From Vectrevirus T145P2: a stretch of DNA of 44,662 nt. Below are positions 30 through 44,504 of this stretch, piece after piece (position 1 is the stretch's first letter; every line of letters begins with the position of its first letter). The translations under genes and the position numbers were made by a program. The stretch lies in the sequence record OZ035802.1; one strand, written 5' to 3'. The notes below the pieces were generated by a model. It had not been told where the DNA came from. It saw nothing but the letters and a program-made list of their open reading frames with translations, and made no database searches.

Positions 30-329
30 GTGAGCGTACACAATAAACATGCAGCTACAGAGGACGAGGTTGGCATTCTGCATGGTGCTATTACCAAAAT
101 CTTCAATAAGAAAGCACAGGCAATACTGGACACTATAGAAGAAGACCCTGATGCAGCATTACATTTAGTGTCTGGTAAGGATATTGGTGCGATGTGTAAG
201 TGGGTTCTTGATAACGGCATTACCGCCACACCTGCTGCACAGCAGGAAGAGTCCAAGTTATCTAAGCGCCTCAAGGCTATCCGAGAGGCATCCAGTGGTA
301 AGATAATTCAATTCACTAAGGAGGATTGA
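30..329 (+). CDS. putative terminase small subunit (gp18-like)
   Basis: 99-aa ORF with GTG start after GGAGGGAG; stop overlaps start of large terminase; T7-group synteny holin - small terminase - large terminase. No motif-level proof. Confidence 0.5.
   Translation: MSVHNKHAATEDEVGILHGAITKIFNKKAQAILDTIEEDPDAALHLVSGKDIGAMCKWVLDNGITATPAAQQEESKLSKRLKAIREASSGKIIQFTKED
123..145 (+). promoter_or_regulatory. SP6-like phage RNAP promoter embedded in small terminase coding sequence
   Basis: AATACTGGACACTATAGAAGAAG matches the recurrent 23-bp promoter consensus of this genome. Confidence 0.5.
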
Positions 330-2227
330 TGGCTAAGGCAAGAGAATCACAAGCGGAGGCTCTTGCCAGATGGGAGATGCTACAGGAGTTACAGCAGACC
401 TTTCCTTACACAGCGGAAGGTTTGCTTCTCTTTGCAGATACAGTTATTCATAACTTAATTGCAGGCAACCCTCATCTGATTCGTATGCAGGCGGATATCT
501 TGAAGTTCCTATTTTACGGACACAAGTACCGCCTCATCGAAGCGCCTCGTGGTATCGCTAAGACAACACTATCAGCAATCTATACGGTATTCCGTATTAT
601 TCATGAACCGCATAAGCGTATCATGGTTGTGTCCCAAAACGCCAAGCGAGCAGAGGAAATCGCAGGTTGGGTAGTTAAAATCTTCCGTGGCTTAGACTTT
701 CTTGAGTTTATGCTGCCGGATATCTACGCTGGGGACCGTGCATCCGTTAAGGCGTTTGAGATTCATTACACCCTACGTGGTAGTGATAAGTCTCCTTCTG
801 TATCCTGTTACTCAATCGAAGCAGGTATGCAGGGTGCTCGTGCTGATATTATTCTGGCGGATGACGTAGAGTCGATGCAGAATGCTCGTACGGCAGCAGG
901 CCGTGCCTTGCTTGAGGAACTGACTAAGGAATTTGAATCTATCAACCAGTTTGGGGATATCATTTACCTTGGTACACCTCAGAACGTAAACTCTATCTAC
1001 AACAACCTACCTGCTCGTGGTTACTCTGTTCGTATCTGGACTGCGCGTTACCCTTCAGTAGAGCAAGAGCAATGTTATGGCGACTTCCTTGCACCTATGA
1101 TTGTTCAAGATATGAAGGACAACCCAGCACTTCGCTCAGGGTACGGGTTGGATGGTAATAGTGGTGCACCTTGTGCCCCTGAAATGTATGATGATGAAGT
1201 CCTGATTGAGAAGGAAATCTCTCAGGGTGCTGCTAAGTTCCAGCTTCAATTCATGCTTAACACTCGCATGATGGATGCTGACAGATACCCATTACGCCTG
1301 AACAATCTAATCTTCACCTCGTTTGGTACAGAGGAAGTCCCTGTGATGCCTACGTGGAGTAATGATTCCATAAACATCATTGGTGATGCACCTAAGTATG
1401 GTAACAAGCCTACGGATTTCATGTACAGACCTGTAGCTCGCCCATACGAATGGGGTGCTGTCTCCCGCAAGATTATGTATATTGACCCTGCGGGTGGTGG
1501 TAAGAACGGAGATGAGACGGGTGTAGCCATCGTATTCCTGCACGGCACATTCATTTATGTGTATCAGTGCTTTGGTGTACCTGGCGGATACCGAGAGTCG
1601 TCCCTGAATCGCATTGTGCAGGCCGCAAAGCAGGCGGGTGTTAAAGAGGTATTCATTGAGAAGAACTTTGGTCATGGCGCGTTTGAGGCGGTAATTAAGC
1701 CGTACTTTGAACGAGAGTGGCCTGTAACTCTGGAAGAGGATTACGCCACCGGACAGAAAGAGTTGCGTATCATTGAGACGCTGGAGCCGCTCATGGCAGC
1801 CCATAGGCTTATCTTCAATGCAGAGATGGTGAAGTCAGACTTTGAGTCGGTACAGCATTATCCGCTTGAACTACGCATGTCCTACAGTCTTTTCAATCAA
1901 ATGTCGAACATAACGATTGAGAAGAACAGCCTCCGGCACGATGACCGCCTAGACGCCCTGTATGGCGCTATACGGCAATTAACTTCTCAGATAGACTATG
2001 ACGAGGTTACACGGATTAATCGCCTCAGAGCGCAGGAGATGCGCGATTACATCCATGCTATGAACACACCTCATCTACGCAGGGCAATGCTGTATGGAGA
2101 TTACGGTACTGAGCGAAGAGTGACAAACACTTCCGTAGCGATGCAGCAGCGAGTTTACGGGCAGAACTACCGAAATAAATCGGCAAGCAGAAATACACTT
2201 TCTGCAAGGATTTCAAGGACTTATTAA
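326..2227 (+). CDS. terminase large subunit (gp19-like)
   Basis: 633-aa ORF; nuclease-domain segment IDPAGGGKNGDETG resembles T7 gp19 as I recall it; size and position as in T7/SP6 phages. Confidence 0.85.
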   Translation: MMAKARESQAEALARWEMLQELQQTFPYTAEGLLLFADTVIHNLIAGNPHLIRMQADILKFLFYGHKYRLIEAPRGIAKTTLSAIYTVFRIIHEPHKRIMVVSQNAKRAEEIAGWVVKIFRGLDFLEFMLPDIYAGDRASVKAFEIHYTLRGSDKSPSVSCYSIEAGMQGARADIILADDVESMQNARTAAGRALLEELTKEFESINQFGDIIYLGTPQNVNSIYNNLPARGYSVRIWTARYPSVEQEQCYGDFLAPMIVQDMKDNPALRSGYGLDGNSGAPCAPEMYDDEVLIEKEISQGAAKFQLQFMLNTRMMDADRYPLRLNNLIFTSFGTEEVPVMPTWSNDSINIIGDAPKYGNKPTDFMYRPVARPYEWGAVSRKIMYIDPAGGGKNGDETGVAIVFLHGTFIYVYQCFGVPGGYRESSLNRIVQAAKQAGVKEVFIEKNFGHGAFEAVIKPYFEREWPVTLEEDYATGQKELRIIETLEPLMAAHRLIFNAEMVKSDFESVQHYPLELRMSYSLFNQMSNITIEKNSLRHDDRLDALYGAIRQLTSQIDYDEVTRINRLRAQEMRDYIHAMNTPHLRRAMLYGDYGTERRVTNTSVAMQQRVYGQNYRNKSASRNTLSARISRTY

Positions 2228-3888: not shown

Positions 3889-3913
3889 ATTTACTGGACA
3901 CTATAGAAGAGAT
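3889..3913 (+). promoter_or_regulatory. SP6-like phage promoter upstream of tailspike genes
   Basis: ATTTACTGGACACTATAGAAGAGAT. Confidence 0.6.
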
Positions 3914-3990
3914 AAGATAGTGCCGTTCTTTTGAGCGGCCTATTACTAGCCAATCTTCATAGGGAGGGTTGGGAAGTAATAGGAGGTCTA

Positions 3991-5430
3991 ATGGCTAAAA
4001 TTACCAAACCTGTCACAACTGGTATTATACATGAAGGTGGATTGCTGTCAGATTATCTAAAACAAGCATGGGATAACACCTTACACGCTGATAACTACTT
4101 TGTTAGTGTTAAAGATTTTGGTGCTAAGGGTGATGGCTCTGCCGATGATACTGCTGCATTCAAAGCTGCACTTGCTTCTGGTAAGAACGTGTATATCCCT
4201 GTAGGTATTTATATAATTAGTGAGACTTTGTATTTTAAGAATCAGGTTATAAAAGGTGGCGGCATAGCACCTGTCCCTAGTCTTGGTACAATCCTTGCAA
4301 TTTCACACAATGAGCCTGCATGGAAATATGATGAAAGCGCAGGTTACTCTATGGGTGGTTATTTAGGTGGGTTCTTCATAGATTATGGAGAGAACAAACC
4401 AGATAACTATGCAGGCAGAAAAGGCATAGATCTAGGTGATGACGACCAACAAGCATGGCCTTCTCAATTTATCATTGAGAACATCATTGTCCGTGGTGCA
4501 TACTTTGGTTTGCATGATGAAACAGGAGCATTCCAATACTCAATGCGCAATGTGGTTGCTATCAATTGCTGGGAGGGGTTCCGTAAGTTCACTGGAACTA
4601 CAGTCCTTATGGATACATGCTATGCGCTTAATTGCTATCAAGCATATAGACTGGCTAATGTTTATAATATGACAATGAATAACTGCGCCATGGATGGATG
4701 TAATGATATCCAAGGTTTACAGGCATTTGATATTACAAACTGCAAAGGTCTTGTGATAAATGGCATGTATAGTGAGAATTGTGAGATCCATCATAGCGGT
4801 AATGCTTCTATATTTATTCATGGAGATTCTACAGTAACAATCAACGGTTATGCCTTACACTCGCATAATGTCGTTGTTGATCCAGCATCTGGAAGTGAAG
4901 AAGCATACTTTCTTAGAGCGCACGACAGCTCTAGGGTCAATGTAGATGGAATCTTCTTCGGTGAGAACCTTAAATCTACTAGTATCTTCACCTACCCAAT
5001 TATGGCCTCTGGTGAGTCTAGAATTAAGCTAGGAACTACAGCACTTAAGGCATGGGTCGGTGCTAAGGGTGGTGCATCTATGGCTGCTGTTGGAGATAGT
5101 CTCATTGAATATGACAATACCGTATTTAACCCATCACTTACTGTAGGTTGGTGCAGTAATAATGGTGTTGTAGCTAAAGGGACACTAGTTGTAAACACAA
5201 CATTAGAACCTAATGCAGATTTAAATGCAGGAACTATACAATTAGTTGGTGACTATAAACCAAATAAAGGTGATGTTCTTACATATGGTTCTACTTTCGA
5301 TGTTCAATCATGTGCTATTATTCTGAAGCCACAAGGTGATAATAGTTGTAATGTTTACATTAAAAATCTAAGTGCAGGTAGTAGTGTTACACTTAACGGA
5401 ATATTGCACGTACAGGCAATTCGTAGGTAA
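3991..5430 (+). CDS. tailspike 1, right-handed beta-helix pectate-lyase-like depolymerase
   Basis: ATG after TAGGAGG; N-terminal VSVKDFGAKGDGSADDTAAFKAA motif typical of pectate-lyase-fold tailspikes; repetitive N/G/T-rich beta-helix composition. Confidence 0.7.
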   Translation: MAKITKPVTTGIIHEGGLLSDYLKQAWDNTLHADNYFVSVKDFGAKGDGSADDTAAFKAALASGKNVYIPVGIYIISETLYFKNQVIKGGGIAPVPSLGTILAISHNEPAWKYDESAGYSMGGYLGGFFIDYGENKPDNYAGRKGIDLGDDDQQAWPSQFIIENIIVRGAYFGLHDETGAFQYSMRNVVAINCWEGFRKFTGTTVLMDTCYALNCYQAYRLANVYNMTMNNCAMDGCNDIQGLQAFDITNCKGLVINGMYSENCEIHHSGNASIFIHGDSTVTINGYALHSHNVVVDPASGSEEAYFLRAHDSSRVNVDGIFFGENLKSTSIFTYPIMASGESRIKLGTTALKAWVGAKGGASMAAVGDSLIEYDNTVFNPSLTVGWCSNNGVVAKGTLVVNTTLEPNADLNAGTIQLVGDYKPNKGDVLTYGSTFDVQSCAIILKPQGDNSCNVYIKNLSAGSSVTLNGILHVQAIRR

Positions 5431-5436
5431 TCACAG

Positions 5437-5460
5437 GCAGTGCGTAAGCACTGCTTTTCG
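5437..5460 (+). terminator. stem-loop with T-run between the two tailspike genes
   Basis: GCAGTGC-GTAA-GCACTGC perfect 7-bp stem followed by TTTTCG. Confidence 0.35.
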
Positions 5461-5514
5461 CGCAACTTTTCTTAAAGGTTATCATGATGGTAGCCTTTCA
5501 GAAAAGGAGGTTAC

Positions 5515-7950
5515 ATGATTCAAAGACTAGGTTCTTCATTAGTTAAATTCAAGAGTAAAATAGCAGGTGCAATCTGGCGTAACTTGGATGACAAGCTCAC
5601 CGAGGTTGTATCGCTTAAAGATTTTGGAGCCAAAGGTGATGGTAAGACAAACGACCAAGATGCAGTAAATGCAGCGATGGCTTCAGGTAAGAGAATTGAC
5701 GGTGCTGGTGCTACTTACAAAGTATCATCTTTACCTGATATGGAGCGATTCTATAACACCCGCTTCGTATGGGAACGTTTAGCAGGTCAACCTCTTTACT
5801 ATGTGAGTAAAGGTTTTATCAATGGTGAACTCTATAAAATCACGGATAACCCTTATTACAATGCTTGGCCTCAAGACAAAGCGTTTGTATATGAGAATGT
5901 GATATATGCACCCTACATGGGTAGCGACCGTCATGGCGTTAGTCGTCTGCATGTATCATGGGTTAAGTCTGGTGACGATGGTCAAACATGGTCTACTCCA
6001 GAGTGGCTAACTGATCTGCATCCAGATTACCCTACAGTGAACTATCATTGTATGAGTATGGGTGTATGTCGCAACCGTCTGTTTGCCATGATTGAAACAC
6101 GTACTTTAGCCAAGAACGCACTAACCAATTGTGCATTGTGGGATCGCCCTATGTCTCGTAGTCTGCATCTTACTGGTGGTATCACTAAGGCTGCAAATCA
6201 GAGATATGCAACAATCCATGTACCTGATCACGGACTATTCGTGGGCGATTTTGTTAACTTCTCTAATTCTGCGGTAACAGGTGTATCAGGTGATATGACT
6301 GTTGCAACGGTAATAGATAAGGACAACTTCACGGTTCTTACACCTAACCAGCAGACTTCAGATTTGAATAACGCTGGAAAGAGTTGGCACATGGGTACTT
6401 CTTTCCATAAGTCTCCATGGCGTAAGACAGATCTTGGTCTAATCCCTAGTGTCACAGAGGTGCATAGCTTTGCTACTATTGATAACAATGGCTTTGTTAT
6501 GGGCTATCATCAAGGTGATGTAGCTCCACGAGAAGTTGGTCTTTTCTACTTCCCTGATGCTTTCAATAGCCCATCTAATTATGTTCGTCGTCAGATACCA
6601 GCTGAGTATGAACCAGATGCGGCAGAGCCATGCATCAAGTACTATGACGGTGTATTATACCTTATCACTCGTGGTACTCGTGGCGACCGACTAGGAAGCT
6701 CTTTGCATCGTAGTAGAGATATAGGTCAGACTTGGGAGTCACTGAGATTTCCACATAATGTTCATCATACTACCTTACCTTTTGCTAAAGTAGGAGATGA
6801 CCTTATTATGTTTGGTTCAGAACGTGCAGAAAATGAATGGGAAGCAGGTGCACCAGATGATCGTTACAAGGCATCTTATCCTCGTACCTTCTATGCACGA
6901 TTGAATGTAAACAATTGGAATGCAGATGATATTGAATGGGTTAACATCACAGACCAAATCTATCAAGGTGACATTGTGAACTCTAGTGTAGGTGTAGGTT
7001 CTGTTGTAGTTAAAGACAGCTACATTTACTATATCTTTGGTGGTGAAAACCATTTCAACCCAATGACTTATGGTGACAACAAAGATAAAGACCCATTTAA
7101 AGGTCATGGACACCCTACTGATATATACTGCTATAAGATGCAGATTGCAAATGACAATCGTGTATCTCGTAAGTTTACATATGGTGCAACTCCTGGTCAG
7201 GCTATACCTACTTTCATGGGTACTGATGGAATACGAAATATCCCTGCACCTTTGTATTTCTCAGATAACATTGTTACAGAGGATACTAAAGTTGGACACT
7301 TAACACTTAAAGCAAGCACAAGTTCCAATATACGATCTGAAGTGCAGATGGAAGGTGAATATGGCTTTATTGGCAAGTCTGTTCCAAAGGACAACCCAAC
7401 TGGTCAACGTTTGATTATTTGTGGTGGAGAAGAGACTTCGTCATCTTCAGGTGCACAGATAACTTTGCACGGCTCTAATTCAAGTAATGCTAAGCGTATC
7501 ACTTATAACGGAAATGAGCACCTATTCCAAGGTGCACCAATCATGCCTGCTGTAGATAACCAGTTTGCTGCTGGTGGACCTAGTAACCGATTCACTACCA
7601 TCTACCTAGGTAGTGACCCTGTTACAACTTCAGATGCTGACCACAAGTACGGTATCTCTGGTATTAATACCAAGGTGTTAAAGGCTTGGAGCAGGGTTGG
7701 TTTTAAACAGTATGGTTTGAATAGTGAAGCAGAGAGGAATCTTGATAGCATACACTTCGGTGTCTTGGCTCAGGATATTGTAGCTGCTTTTGAAGCTGAA
7801 GGATTGGATGCCATTAAGTATGGAATTGTGTCCTTCGAAGAAGGTAGGTACGGTGTGAGATATAGTGAAGTTCTAATCCTAGAGGCTGCCTACACTCGCC
7901 ATCGTCTTGATAAATTAGAGGAGATGTATGCCGCTAATAAAATCAGTTAA
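5515..7950 (+). CDS. tailspike 2, endosialidase-like with C-terminal intramolecular chaperone domain
   Basis: 811 aa; two sialidase Asp-boxes (SGDDGQTW, SRDIGQTW); last ~105 aa resemble the autocleaving chaperone domain of endosialidases with SDADHK Ser-Lys motif; N-terminal SLKDFGAKGDG. Confidence 0.8.
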   Translation: MIQRLGSSLVKFKSKIAGAIWRNLDDKLTEVVSLKDFGAKGDGKTNDQDAVNAAMASGKRIDGAGATYKVSSLPDMERFYNTRFVWERLAGQPLYYVSKGFINGELYKITDNPYYNAWPQDKAFVYENVIYAPYMGSDRHGVSRLHVSWVKSGDDGQTWSTPEWLTDLHPDYPTVNYHCMSMGVCRNRLFAMIETRTLAKNALTNCALWDRPMSRSLHLTGGITKAANQRYATIHVPDHGLFVGDFVNFSNSAVTGVSGDMTVATVIDKDNFTVLTPNQQTSDLNNAGKSWHMGTSFHKSPWRKTDLGLIPSVTEVHSFATIDNNGFVMGYHQGDVAPREVGLFYFPDAFNSPSNYVRRQIPAEYEPDAAEPCIKYYDGVLYLITRGTRGDRLGSSLHRSRDIGQTWESLRFPHNVHHTTLPFAKVGDDLIMFGSERAENEWEAGAPDDRYKASYPRTFYARLNVNNWNADDIEWVNITDQIYQGDIVNSSVGVGSVVVKDSYIYYIFGGENHFNPMTYGDNKDKDPFKGHGHPTDIYCYKMQIANDNRVSRKFTYGATPGQAIPTFMGTDGIRNIPAPLYFSDNIVTEDTKVGHLTLKASTSSNIRSEVQMEGEYGFIGKSVPKDNPTGQRLIICGGEETSSSSGAQITLHGSNSSNAKRITYNGNEHLFQGAPIMPAVDNQFAAGGPSNRFTTIYLGSDPVTTSDADHKYGISGINTKVLKAWSRVGFKQYGLNSEAERNLDSIHFGVLAQDIVAAFEAEGLDAIKYGIVSFEEGRYGVRYSEVLILEAAYTRHRLDKLEEMYAANKIS

Positions 7951-8077
7951 GCAAGCTGCTGTACGCCAGAACGCAGAAGAACTTATTCAATCAGGACGTG
8001 ACCCTAAGCAGGCATACGCCATTGCCAAGGATGTACAACGTCGTGCCTTGAAGAAACCTTCTGCATCTTCTGCTTAA
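7928..8077 (+). CDS. hypothetical small basic ORF (49 aa) at right end
   Basis: ATG overlapping tailspike 3' end in another frame; no clear RBS. Confidence 0.2.
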   Translation: MPLIKSVKQAAVRQNAEELIQSGRDPKQAYAIAKDVQRRALKKPSASSA

Positions 8078-8283
8078 GCAGGTTAATATCTTAGTGTACA
8101 CAAGGGCAGACCTAGGTTTGCTCTTAGTGCCATCAAAGGAGGGTGTAGGTATGTTATCTTTGTTGTGTATACTCAGTGATGTCCTAGGTCGTAAGAGGTA
8201 CATTCTTAGTGAAGACCAAATAAGGGACGAGAAGATACGGAGGTCGCTCACAAAGTAACCAAAGTCAAAATTTTGATATAGGC

Positions 8284-8520
8284 GTGTGTGAGGTGTCTCG
8301 CCCTCGCCCTCGCCGGATTTCCCCCATATGGGGCCGCGCTGCGGTTGGCTTGGGAATTGGGCTGGGCTGGTCCGTCTTCGACGGGTGGCCTAGGGCTTGC
8401 CGAGGTCTGCTCTTAGTGGCTGCACAAGGAGAACGCCTAGGAAGCGCTAGGGCACGCCTTAGTATTGGACAAGGTGATTGCCTTAGTGCAACCGCTTAGG
8501 GCTTACACAGGCCGTTTTAG
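8284..8520. other. GC-rich island with CTCGCC x3 and CCCCCATATGGGG palindrome (terminal-repeat candidate)
   Basis: GC content visibly above genome background; T7 carries a similar CCCCCATAGGGGG near its left end as I recall. Confidence 0.4.
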
Positions 8521-8967
8521 GGCCATTCCTGAGCATTTGACAGGGTGAGCGTGGGTGGGCTATCTGTTCGTTTCGCTCCACTACGTTACGCTACACTCAC
8601 CGCGCTTGTGTATCCTTGGTATAATCCTGATGGATGGCTTAGGTTAGCCTTAGTGGGATACCTTAGTTAAAGCCTTAGTGCTTAGCTTAGTATCAACTTA
8701 GTAGTGTACCTTAGTAAGTCTTAGTGTCTTCTCTTAGTGATTGCATAGCTAAAGCTATAAGATGCAATTAGGTCGCGGTCGGTAGACCGCTAATAAGAAG
8801 TAATAGTAATAAGATGCAGTAGGAGGAACACCAGAAACCTAGCCAACCTAGTCTATCCTAGCTCTGTATCTATTGCTTTCCTTAGTCTCACATGTTAGAC
8901 AACCTAGGTTTACCTTAGCAGTTGTGACAGGTATCACATAAATAATCTATCTTAGTGCGATTTAGTG

Positions 8968-8996
8968 TTGACGTAGGCAGTTAACAGGTATACATT
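8968..8996 (+). promoter_or_regulatory. candidate host sigma70 early promoter
   Basis: TTGACG - 17 bp - TACATT. Confidence 0.4.
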
Positions 8997-9219
8997 AGCA
9001 ATCAGTCGGGAGCGACATTAAACACTCAGGGTGAATGATAGAGAGCGTCCTTAACTATCCGGCCTAGCTACTGAAGCCGTTAAACAATGTTAGATAGTGG
9101 AAGATGGCGCAAGCATAACCTACCACGATAAACCAAGGTTAGCGCAATGCTCTTTAACAATTTGCTTAGTGTAACCTGTGTATGCCGTGGTTAATTACTT
9201 ATTGAATGAGGAATTAACT

Positions 9220-9336
9220 ATGAATTATGAAGAAATGTATGAAGTCTATTTCGACTCATTAGATGAAGGAGAAGAAGCATTAACCTTCGCTGAGTTTATG
9301 GAGGCTTTATGGAGTTTCTATCATGACTCTAAATAA
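9220..9336 (+). CDS. hypothetical small acidic early protein (38 aa)
   Basis: ATG after GAGGAA; MNYEEMYEVYFDSLDEGEE... Confidence 0.35.
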   Translation: MNYEEMYEVYFDSLDEGEEALTFAEFMEALWSFYHDSK

Positions 9337-9502
9337 CCGTGAACTGTCCGTTCTCTTCACTCTGTTGTGCTACATGATTCGTAACAACGAATTACTTACG
9401 GAGGATGAGTTAGCCTTGTATCACCGATTCCTTAACGAAGGTTGGACCGATACAGTTAATCAATACCGTAACATGATAGATGAATTGAGGGAGGGTAAAT
9501 AA
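9323..9502 (+). CDS. hypothetical early protein (59 aa)
   Basis: ORF with overlapping start; stop overlaps next start. Confidence 0.4.
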   Translation: MTLNNRELSVLFTLLCYMIRNNELLTEDELALYHRFLNEGWTDTVNQYRNMIDELREGK

Positions 9503-43200: not shown

Positions 43201-43542
43201 TTATCGCCTAAAGGGTTGGCCTTTGGTGCAATGGGTATGATGAGTACAACTGCTGTATTTAGTCTAGGTGGAGATTTCTTAGGTGGCCTAGGTGTTCTAC
43301 CTTCTGAGTTAGTACAATCCCGTTATGAGGCTGGCTTTCAGACTAAGGGGTTGATAGACCAAATACCACTAGTAGGTGTTGGTCAAGATGCATATCGTTT
43401 AGCAGATTCTATAACTAGATACGCAGAGGGTGATACAGAAGGTGTAGATGTGGCACGTAGGGCTTTACGCTTAGTGCCTCTAGCTAATGTAATAGGAATC
43501 CAGAACGCATTGCGTTATGGCTTAGATGAACTGGAGGATTAA
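40234..43542 (+). CDS. large internal virion protein (gp16-like ejectosome component)
   Basis: 1102 aa; GGAGG RBS; largely helical; last of three internal virion genes. Confidence 0.75.
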   Translation: MEQDIKTNWAGYVQSTPEPFSIEAAPVSAPTIRQRNELQEQVLEAKADADILGAVGAAFQNEWLAFGGKRWYDRATADFTPQPDFEIQPEQREALRFKYGTDMMQTITEGVRSEDELNFRIQNADEDLERNKRIAQAGWVGSVATIGAAVLDPVGWVASIPTGGAAKVGLVGRAVRGAIAAGVSNAAIESVLVQGDMTRDLDDIMVALGSGMAMGGVIGAVARGRATKLSEQGDDRAASIVRSADAGDRYVRAVADDSIGAMRVKGEEVLTEGAFDVSSKGEDLLKTLQREGNAIDMTPRRWAGTLSALGTVVHSSQDASVRGLGARLFESPQGLGMQKASASLMQNTNLNRLKSADMNRFNDGFDLWLKENNINPVAGHTNSHYVQQYNEKVWEAVRIGMDESTPKSIRMAAEGQQAMYREALALRQRSGEAGFEKVKADDKYMPDIFDSMKARRQFSMHDKEDIIELFSRAYQNGSRKVPKEVADDIARAQVNRVADATLTGQLSFEKAMSGQTKAEYEALMRKAGFSDEEIEKMVEALDNKETRDNISNRAKMSLGLDVTQEYNGIRMRDFMNTNVEELTDNYMKEAAGGAALARQGFSTYQAALNAIDLVERNARNAAKDTKAHAQFEAESAKIRQSEPDYKKAQEKIEELKKRLKLKEKDEAAGLAIDEEIRQMREGLRLIMGKSIDSNPQDLSTKMLRRGRDITGVLRLGQMGFAQLGELANFMGEFGIAATTMALGKQFRFTSKALRNGDGFFRDKNLAEVERMVGYIGEDNWLTTKGARPDEFGDVTTVRGMMAHFDQSMNSIRRAQTNLSLFRMAQGSLERMTNRQIALSFIDHLEGKKIIPQKKLEELGLTQEFMTNLQKHYDANSKGSGLLGFDTMPYAMGETLANAIRRKSGLIIQRNFIGDEGIWMNKALGKTFAQLKSFSLVSGEKQFGRGIRHDKIGLAKKTAYGFALGSIVYAAKAYVNSIGREDQDEYLEEKLSPKGLAFGAMGMMSTTAVFSLGGDFLGGLGVLPSELVQSRYEAGFQTKGLIDQIPLVGVGQDAYRLADSITRYAEGDTEGVDVARRALRLVPLANVIGIQNALRYGLDELED

Positions 43543-44504
43543 TGAGTTATACTTTCACAGAACATATAGCCAACGGTACGCAAGTAACCTATCCCTTTAG
43601 CTTTGCTGGTAGGGATAAAGGTTATCTTCGTGCCTCAGATGTGATAGTGGAGTCTCTTCAAGGTAGCACTTGGATTGAGGTTACATCTGGCTGGCAACTA
43701 ACTGGCACGCACCAGATTACTTTTGATGTAGCACCAGTTGTAGGTTTGAAGTTCCGTATTCGAAGGGAAGTACAAAAGGAGTATCCATACGCTGAGTTTG
43801 ACCGTGGTGTTACCTTGGATATGAAGTCTTTAAATGGTTCTTTCATTCATATGCTGGAGATTACACAGGAGTTACTTGACGGGTTTTATCCAGAAGGATA
43901 CTTCATTAAACAGAATGTAAGCTGGGGCGGCAATAAGATTACTGATTTGGCTGATGGCACAAATCCTGGAGATGCAGTAAATAAAGGGCAGCTTGATGCC
44001 ATCGACAAGAAGCATACAGATTGGAACGCCAAACAGGACATTGAGATTGCTGGCCTTAAGGCTGGTATGACTTCTGGTATTGCGCACAGAACTGTTCCTT
44101 GGTACACGATAGCCCAAGGTGGTGAGATTTCCGTAAAACCACCTTATGAATTTCAAGATGCACTAGTTTTCCTTAATGGGGTATTGCAGCACCAAATTGT
44201 AGGCGCATACTCTATAAGCAACAACACTATCACTTTCGCAGAGCCGCTTGTGGCGGGTACAGAGGTGTATGTGCTGATTGGTAGTCGTGTGGCTACATCT
44301 GAACCTAATATTCAGTTAGAGTTGAACTTTGACTTAGTAGAAGGCCAACAAGTAGTACAGATTGGCTCTGCATTTAAGTACATTGAGGTCTACCTTGATG
44401 GATTATTACAACCTAAACTTGCTTATCAGGTAGACGGTGACATTGTTACTTTCTCAGAAAGAGTACCAGAATGCCGGATGACTGCTAAGATTATCACAGC
44501 ATAA
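43542..44504 (+). CDS. tail fiber N-terminal-domain-like adaptor protein
   Basis: 320 aa; N-terminus resembles the tail-attachment domain of T7 gp17; too short for a full fiber, so probably docks the two tailspikes. Confidence 0.8.
   Translation: MSYTFTEHIANGTQVTYPFSFAGRDKGYLRASDVIVESLQGSTWIEVTSGWQLTGTHQITFDVAPVVGLKFRIRREVQKEYPYAEFDRGVTLDMKSLNGSFIHMLEITQELLDGFYPEGYFIKQNVSWGGNKITDLADGTNPGDAVNKGQLDAIDKKHTDWNAKQDIEIAGLKAGMTSGIAHRTVPWYTIAQGGEISVKPPYEFQDALVFLNGVLQHQIVGAYSISNNTITFAEPLVAGTEVYVLIGSRVATSEPNIQLELNFDLVEGQQVVQIGSAFKYIEVYLDGLLQPKLAYQVDGDIVTFSERVPECRMTAKIITA

Follow-up and report, generated by a model that had tools for sequence, protein, structure and literature searches.

A predicted K1 endosialidase and a probable O2 O-antigen tailspike in the dual-spike locus of a Vectrevirus genome

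Coliphage K1-5 covers two capsule types, K1 and K5, with two tailspikes borne on one adaptor protein. Latka et al. 2019 (PMC6872550), with reference to Leiman et al. 2007, report that these spikes attach at different sites of the adaptor gp37: the heptapeptide MAKLTKP serves to dock gp46, and the undecapeptide MIQRLGSSLVK serves to dock gp47. The same paper describes an adaptor, two spikes (gp46 and gp47) and conserved docking peptides in Salmonella phage SP6, the precedent for spikes of this arrangement that act on O-antigens (it cites Gebhart 2017 and Tu 2017). A third point of reference is coliphage Mt1B1_P10, to which resistance was seen only in a mutant lacking both the K1 capsule and the O-antigen (ligase), identifying the O-antigen of lipopolysaccharide (LPS) as an alternative receptor; mutants that became resistant in vivo carried lesions in neuB and wzy (PMC12361893). 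Here we describe the spike locus of a 44,662-nucleotide (nt) Vectrevirus sequence (OZ035802.1), referred to over its full length as the window, in which two adjacent genes encode the proteins that we call Spike 1 (the gp46 slot) and Spike 2 (gp47).

Whereas both SP6 spikes act on Salmonella O-antigens, the window appears to pair one capsule spike with one O-antigen spike. We propose that Spike 1 is most likely a tailspike for the O2 O-antigen, because of the genetics of Mt1B1_P10, the O2:K1 hosts of two sister phages, the enrichment of O2 strains in host ranges and the presence of a homologue in a phage named pO2. This reading as a whole, including a K1-5-type cassette, a K1 endosialidase as Spike 2 and cassette exchange at the gp46 slot, seems to us probable but well short of certain.

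An adaptor and two spikes of the K1-5 type

To judge from its sequence, the window is a circularly permuted complete genome of the genus Vectrevirus (Autographiviridae, Molineuxvirinae). Its spike region is 98.4% identical in DNA to that of Mt1B1_P10 over the full length and 98.2% identical to the comparison genome T145P2. These sister phages carry the same two spikes (region ~98% identical in DNA) but are separate isolates, from O2:K1 hosts as opposed to the O1:K1 host of AL505_P3, the phage that the window is presumed to represent. K1-5, K1E and many other K1 phages match the region only outside the body of Spike 1. A first-pass annotation of the window had placed two adjacent spike genes at 3991-7950, an interval that proved exact for two plus-strand open reading frames (ORFs) of 479 and 811 amino acids (Table 1). 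It also had the spikes follow terminase; the adjacent pair is real, but an endolysin, a spanin and other genes intervene.

The window shares with K1-5 the gene order, an upstream phage promoter, the docking peptides, the intergenic hairpin region, and an adaptor and endosialidase that are 99% and 98% identical. It differs in gp46, the body of which, from around codon 8 nearly to the stop, is replaced here: Spike 1 has 479 residues and the K5 lyase of K1-5 has 632, their likeness is limited to the first ~35-70 residues, and the predicted target is the O-antigen of LPS rather than a capsule. The 320-residue adaptor, correctly spotted at the gp17 position in the first-pass annotation, shares 316 of its 320 residues with K1-5 gp37, matches phrog_2710 (tail fibre) with E = 2e-147, and shows a weak match to the N-terminal Phage_T7_tail domain at residues 3-153.

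Both docking signals can be read at the N-termini. Spike 2 begins with MIQRLGSSLVK, an exact match to the K1-5 undecapeptide, and Spike 1 begins with MAKITKP, which agrees with MAKLTKP at six of seven positions and departs from it by a conservative change of L to I. The heptapeptide is MANITKP in T145P2 (comparison sequence L006, 1592-1612), MAKITKP in the window and Mt1B1_P10, and MAKLTKP in K1-5 and K1E; this variation among phages implies that positions 3 and 4 tolerate change. At the sequence level, the locus displays all hallmarks of the adaptor-borne dual-tailspike family of K1-5, K1E and SP6, and from its near-identity to K1-5 we infer that both spikes are attached to the adaptor on the virion. 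The tail would bear adaptor trimers, and every adaptor would have two sites for docking, of which the mid-adaptor one would receive Spike 1 by its MAKITKP peptide and the other Spike 2 by its MIQRLGSSLVK peptide.

Spike 2 is identical to the K1-5 gp47 endosialidase at 798 of 811 residues and contains all five endosialidase domains of Pfam: PF12217 (E = 5e-223), PF12219, PF12195 (E = 2e-47), PF12218 and PF13884. Behind the undecapeptide follow an N-terminal cap, a six-bladed beta-propeller with a nested beta-barrel, a stalk (PF12219, residues 546-705) and, from S706, a C-terminal intramolecular chaperone (PF13884, Peptidase_S74 'chaperone of endosialidase', residues 706-763). The junction reads TTS706 followed by DADHK, and we take Ser706, from the endoNE literature, to be the site at which the chaperone is cleaved. 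Two sialidase Asp-boxes, SGDDGQTW (residues 152-159, nt 5968-5991) and SRDIGQTW (residues 400-407, nt 6712-6735), are the sole matches to S-x-D-x-G-x-[TS]-W in all six frames of the window. The Asp-boxes, the C-terminal chaperone and the assignment to polysialic acid (K1) had all been proposed in the first-pass annotation, and each is borne out by the domain content and the 98% identity to a characterised enzyme. Together with the K1-linked host ranges of a sister phage and AL505_P3, the identity to the K1E/K1-5 enzyme argues that Spike 2 is a K1 endosialidase active on alpha-2,8-polysialic acid. We propose that it would bind and degrade this capsule, bringing the virion to the outer membrane, and that its chaperone would fold the trimer and then be cut off at Ser706.

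Fold, family and platforms of Spike 1

Spike 1 consists of the MAKITKP peptide, a helix (residues 18-34), a right-handed beta-helix (~37-340) and a C-terminal beta-sandwich (~385-479). An AlphaFold2 model built with 12 homologues has a predicted local distance difference test (pLDDT) score of 84 and a disordered N-terminus. Searched with Foldseek, this model ranked the O-antigen endorhamnosidase tailspike of Shigella phage Sf6 first (E = 3e-8), followed by other tailspikes, with TM-scores of ~0.4. At the sequence level, the family profile likewise finds the Sf6 tailspike (E = 1.5e-13), with a match limited to the N-terminal part, and hhalign gives the pair a probability of 97.9% over a similarity confined to the linker and first rungs (Sf6 131-236). 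In Pfam, PF12708 passes its threshold (48.5 bits versus 27) and spans residues 37-89 only. The profile searches and structure prediction that the first-pass annotation had recommended recovered endosialidase domains on Spike 2 and, from the AlphaFold2 model and the Foldseek tailspike matches, the beta-helix that it had foreseen for Spike 1. The best PHROG for Spike 1 is phrog_8649, labelled 'unknown function'; in Mt1B1_P10, GenBank labels both spike genes 'hypothetical protein'.

Four carboxylates of the predicted beta-helix, D176, D208, D235 and E262, are conserved in 12 homologues down to 23% identity. Their spacing of 27-32 residues, about one per coil, is as expected of a carboxylate-lined groove, and these four are the likely catalytic residues. 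The Sf6 tailspike cleaves an O-antigen of Rha-Rha-Rha-GlcNAc repeats (Rha, rhamnose; GlcNAc, N-acetylglucosamine), which resembles the O2 backbone. Because, to our knowledge, the O2 repeat contains no uronic acid, we favour a glycosidase over a lyase, and Spike 1 is probably a hydrolase.

The two spikes share an N-terminal motif, VKDFGAKGDG at residues 40-49 of Spike 1 and LKDFGAKGDG at residues 34-43 of Spike 2, within 41 residues that are 51% identical between them (BLASTP E = 6e-8, beyond chance). The first-pass annotation had singled out this KDFGAKGDG element. It is indeed present in both proteins, but it is a fold motif and not phage-specific: beta-helix proteins of the PF12708 type have it in their generic N-terminal cap, it also occurs in fungal glucanases and in phi29 gp12, and the known docking signals are the hepta- and undecapeptides. 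We also considered Spike 1 as a K5 lyase (KflA) and rejected this assignment, as BLASTP aligns residues 1-74 only (41% identity) with nothing significant further on; the K5 lyase in the PDB (2x3h) likewise matches at the N-terminus only.

The Spike 1 body is rare, with 100 of 1.84 billion cluster representatives matching at E <= 1e-3 and 10 at E <= 1e-30. At least eight contigs of ~45 kb carry the Spike 1 ORF undisrupted and at more than 98% conservation; the window's protein is 99.4% identical to the Mt1B1_P10 allele (three substitutions) and 98.1% identical to that of T145P2. A blastn search in distant mode of 5,426 complete E. coli genomes found no copy at the DNA level, and an attempt to read the specificity of Spike 1 from the serotypes of prophage hosts was dropped because these genomes hold no prophage copy.

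Beyond Vectrevirus, the Kayfunavirus phages pO2, Vec13 and UFJF_EcSW4 carry an 81%-identical receptor-binding body (80.5% in UFJF_EcSW4) that matches Spike 1 residues 40-479. In these phages the body forms part of a single receptor-binding protein of 676 residues, behind an N-terminal anchor of the T7 gp17 type plus Tail_spike_N, with no adaptor. We found no paper on pO2, and the literature on Vec13 and UFJF_EcSW4 consisted of passing citations without receptor information. In a 71-kb Logan contig that looks N4/G7C-like, a 53%-identical body sits on a Tail_spike_N domain as the second of two adjacent spikes (L008, 5324-9863). Another 53%-identical body is the single terminal spike of a further ~44-kb autographivirus that has its own 425-residue adaptor-like protein (European Nucleotide Archive contig, L003, 244-7422). 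As read from these sequences, the receptor-binding module has moved between virion platforms: the Vectrevirus gp46 slot, a T7-like gp17 anchor, an N4/G7C-like branched spike and another ~44-kb adaptor-type autographivirus. Recruitment onto at least four platforms implies selection for the function of the Spike 1 body.

Siphoviruses of the Veterinaerplatzvirus T145P1 group (OZ035767, OZ035793, OZ035765 and OZ035786) encode, at ~24.6-25.5 kb, a spike that is 28% identical to Spike 1 residues 63-319. They share with T145_P2 the O2:K1 host of isolation and, in the accessible part of the published phage-strain interaction matrix, plate mainly on the O2 strains IAI51, IAI74, IAI06, ECOR-50 and MT1B1. 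Their spike could represent a remote relative with O2 specificity, in this case on a third morphotype.

The receptor of Spike 1

The hosts of Mt1B1_P10 and T145_P2, Mt1B1 (sequence type ST998) and T145 (ST141), are both O2:H6 and K1. We examined host range in 133 strains with O and K typing from the accessible part of the published matrix (rows ECOR-49..72, ED1a, EDL933, IAI, LMR-3158, M863 and NILS01-27), using Fisher tests with no phylogenetic correction; rows H* and FN*, all zero by eye, were excluded from the statistics. Among non-K1 strains, T145_P2 infected four of seven O2 strains versus 3/104 non-O2 strains (p = 2e-4), and AL505_P3, also a Vectrevirus, infected the same fraction of O2 strains (4/7) versus 10/104 of the others (p = 0.005). 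Of the K5 strains, the two that are O2 (ECOR-49 and ECOR-50) support plating of T145_P2, and none of the 13 others does. With K1 present, it scored 2 or more on 10 of 12 O2:K1 strains versus 4 of 10 non-O2 K1 strains.

Several observations weigh against an O2 spike. The account of Mt1B1_P10 is silent on tailspikes and endosialidase and does not name the gene behind the O-antigen phenotype (PMC12361893). No assignment of that phenotype to the Spike 1 gene was found in the papers searched. The Beta_helix family PF13229 scores 20.4 on Spike 1, under its gathering score of 25.9, and the hhalign alignment ends at Sf6 residue 236, so that no catalytic residue of Spike 1 could be mapped onto the Sf6 tailspike, whose catalytic residues are E366 and D399. 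In the host ranges, T145_P2 fails on three O2:K7 strains and is weak on the O2 strain M863, which has no ABC capsule. Among the four positive O2 non-K1 strains, ECOR-49 and ECOR-50, both K5, are probably related, and IAI38 (ST79) may have a K1 capsule locus that escaped detection. There are also a few weak positives among O1 strains. Finally, UFJF_EcSW4 was isolated on ATCC 11775, which we take to be O1:K1:H7, and the host of the window phage, taken to be AL505_P3, is very probably O1:K1; these hosts therefore make a combined O1/O2 or an allele-dependent specificity possible. AL505 itself is recorded as B2, ST95, O1:H7 and K1 (Gaborieau et al., bioRxiv 10.1101/2023.11.22.567924, Supplementary Table 2).

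These last points bear most directly on a reading in which Spike 1 recognizes O-antigens more broadly than O2 or other than O2, acting on the rhamnose-backbone types O1, O2 and O50 or, in the AL505_P3 allele, targeting O1. Such a specificity, which we consider unlikely, would fit the two O1:K1 isolation hosts. It would also fit the infection by T145_P2 of three non-O2 non-K1 strains, two of which are O1, and the score of 5 that AL505_P3 reaches on the O1 strain IAI58. Chemically, the O2 repeat is composed of several L-Rha residues with a branch of N-acetylated 3-aminofucose (Fuc3NAc), O2 and O50 have the same main chain, and O1 and O2 are both multi-Rha (PMC7685785). However, the O1 matches mostly score 1, IAI58 (ST59, O1:H7) may itself be an undetected K1 strain, and neither the O1 strain IAI13, which has no waaL, nor the O1:K1 strain IAI56 was infected. 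Moreover, the window allele, presumed to be that of AL505_P3, is only three residues from the Mt1B1_P10 allele.

The first-pass annotation had suggested that the phage recognizes two capsule types, with Spike 1 as a second depolymerase in the manner of K1-5. The gp46 slot of K1-5 does hold a K5 lyase, many similarly folded beta-helix spikes are capsule depolymerases, and K5 is the capsule of ECOR-49 and ECOR-50, the two strains without K1 on which T145_P2 does best. Yet plating on K5 strains is restricted to O2 ones, and Spike 1 loses its similarity to the K5 lyase past the docking N-terminus. Furthermore, the alternative receptor mapped in Mt1B1 is the O-antigen, through ligase and wzy mutants, and the hosts of both sister phages have the O2 type in common along with the K1 capsule. 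The second receptor is thus probably O-antigen, and a second capsule depolymerase appears quite improbable.

We give still less credence to Spike 1 as a binding-only or vestigial passenger, with the O-antigen dependence of Mt1B1_P10 arising from another virion component or indirectly from LPS mutation: K1E, with a gp46 remnant only, is still a successful K1 phage, O2 non-K1 strains are incompletely infected (weakly by AL505_P3), and Spike 1 has no catalytic residue mappable to a known enzyme, but its ORF is intact and conserved, one carboxylate per coil is retained down to 23% identity, the same body sits on at least four different virion platforms, and no other receptor-binding-type protein was recognized within the regions examined.

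If Spike 1 is an O2 tailspike, it would bind and hydrolyse the rhamnose-rich O2 chains and so open a way to the outer membrane that does not depend on the capsule. Each of the two spikes would then suffice on its own to reach the cell surface, and the phage could infect both O2 cells in which the K1 capsule is lost or switched off and K1 cells whose O type is not O2. A host would escape only by giving up the K1 capsule together with the O-antigen. A more far-reaching proposal, which we regard as an even call, is that Spike 1 is a portable O2-specific glycosidase, probably of the endorhamnosidase kind, that has come to serve as a module on at least four types of virion. Its pairing with a K1 endosialidase would then be an adaptation to O2:K1 clones of extraintestinal pathogenic E. 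coli (ExPEC) and avian pathogenic E. coli (APEC) and to a phase-variable capsule.

Cassette exchange, genome context and implications

Comparison with K1-5 and K1E by blastn places breakpoints at 4010/4011, which is 20 nt into the Spike 1 ORF, and at 5419/5424, just ahead of its stop. The segment between them has a G+C content of 39.5%, against 44.9% for the genome. K1-5 gp46 (the K5 lyase), K1E gp46 (a 111-residue remnant) and Spike 1 have only their first ~25-35 residues in common. The right-hand junction is formed by an intergenic region that folds with a minimum free energy of -38.1 kcal/mol (z = -7.1 versus shuffles). This region contains two strong hairpins, at 5435-5456 (GUAA loop, then UUUUCG) and 5466-5506, as well as the Shine-Dalgarno sequence of Spike 2. 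We propose that the Spike 1 body entered the gp46 slot by a cassette exchange bounded by the conserved gene start and this hairpin-rich spacer, which, as a processing site or an incomplete terminator, may also tune the ratio of the two spikes.

Table 1. Coordinates of the spike locus and associated features in the window.
Feature	Position	Strand	Details
Terminase	326-2227		
SP6-type phage-RNA-polymerase promoter	3889-3911	+	ATTTACTGGACACTATAGAAGAG, exact consensus, ahead of the spike cassette
Spike 1 ORF (gp46 slot)	3991-5430	+	479 amino acids, ATG at 3991
Exchanged cassette	4011-5419	+	No DNA homology to K1-5 or K1E; flanks 89-97% identical
Intergenic region, right-hand cassette junction	5431-5514	+	84 nt, conserved with K1-5 and K1E
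Spike 2 ORF (gp47)	5515-7950	+	811 amino acids, ATG at 5515
Adaptor, gp37 homologue	43542-44504	+	320 amino acids, tail-fibre position, predicted carrier of both spikes

The promoter relevant to the cassette is of the phage-polymerase type. Eight matches to the SP6-type promoter with up to three mismatches occur in the window, all on the plus strand, where shuffled sequences give an expectation of 0; a scan for sigma-70 promoters and terminators showed no enrichment. An AGGAGG ribosome-binding site lies at ~3981-3986, ahead of the Spike 1 ATG. Between terminase and the spikes are two small paralogous genes, an endolysin, an ORF of unknown function and an Rz-like spanin. The adjacent small paralogues (2318-2662 and 2620-2967) both match phrog_2725, whose label 'acetyl-CoA acetyltransferase' seems to be a doubtful propagated annotation for proteins of ~95 residues. 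Downstream of the spikes, 7951-9500 holds few ORFs and one GC-rich stretch (spurious ORF 8284-8499). The physical genome ends are expected at ~8297-8560, where the window is homologous to the direct terminal repeat annotated in Mt1B1_P10 (267 bp; L001, 9403-9669).

The enzyme corresponding to Spike 2, the phenotype of Mt1B1_P10 and the O-antigen spikes of SP6 were already known; what is new here is the O2 assignment as a link from gene to function. O2:K1 is among the main serotype combinations of ExPEC and APEC, and a spike that cuts O2, if our assignment is true, could serve as a reagent for typing or of the decapsulation type, and as a ready host-range module for engineered phages. It would also explain the gut persistence of phages of the Mt1B1_P10 type, as escape requires loss of capsule and O-antigen, and resistance would come through a double loss of surface structures that is costly in the gut. 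Finally, a rare family of 'hypothetical' proteins would gain a function, and the Vectrevirus gp46 slot would be seen to accept O-antigen as well as capsule enzymes, extending, but not overturning, the K1-5/SP6 paradigm.

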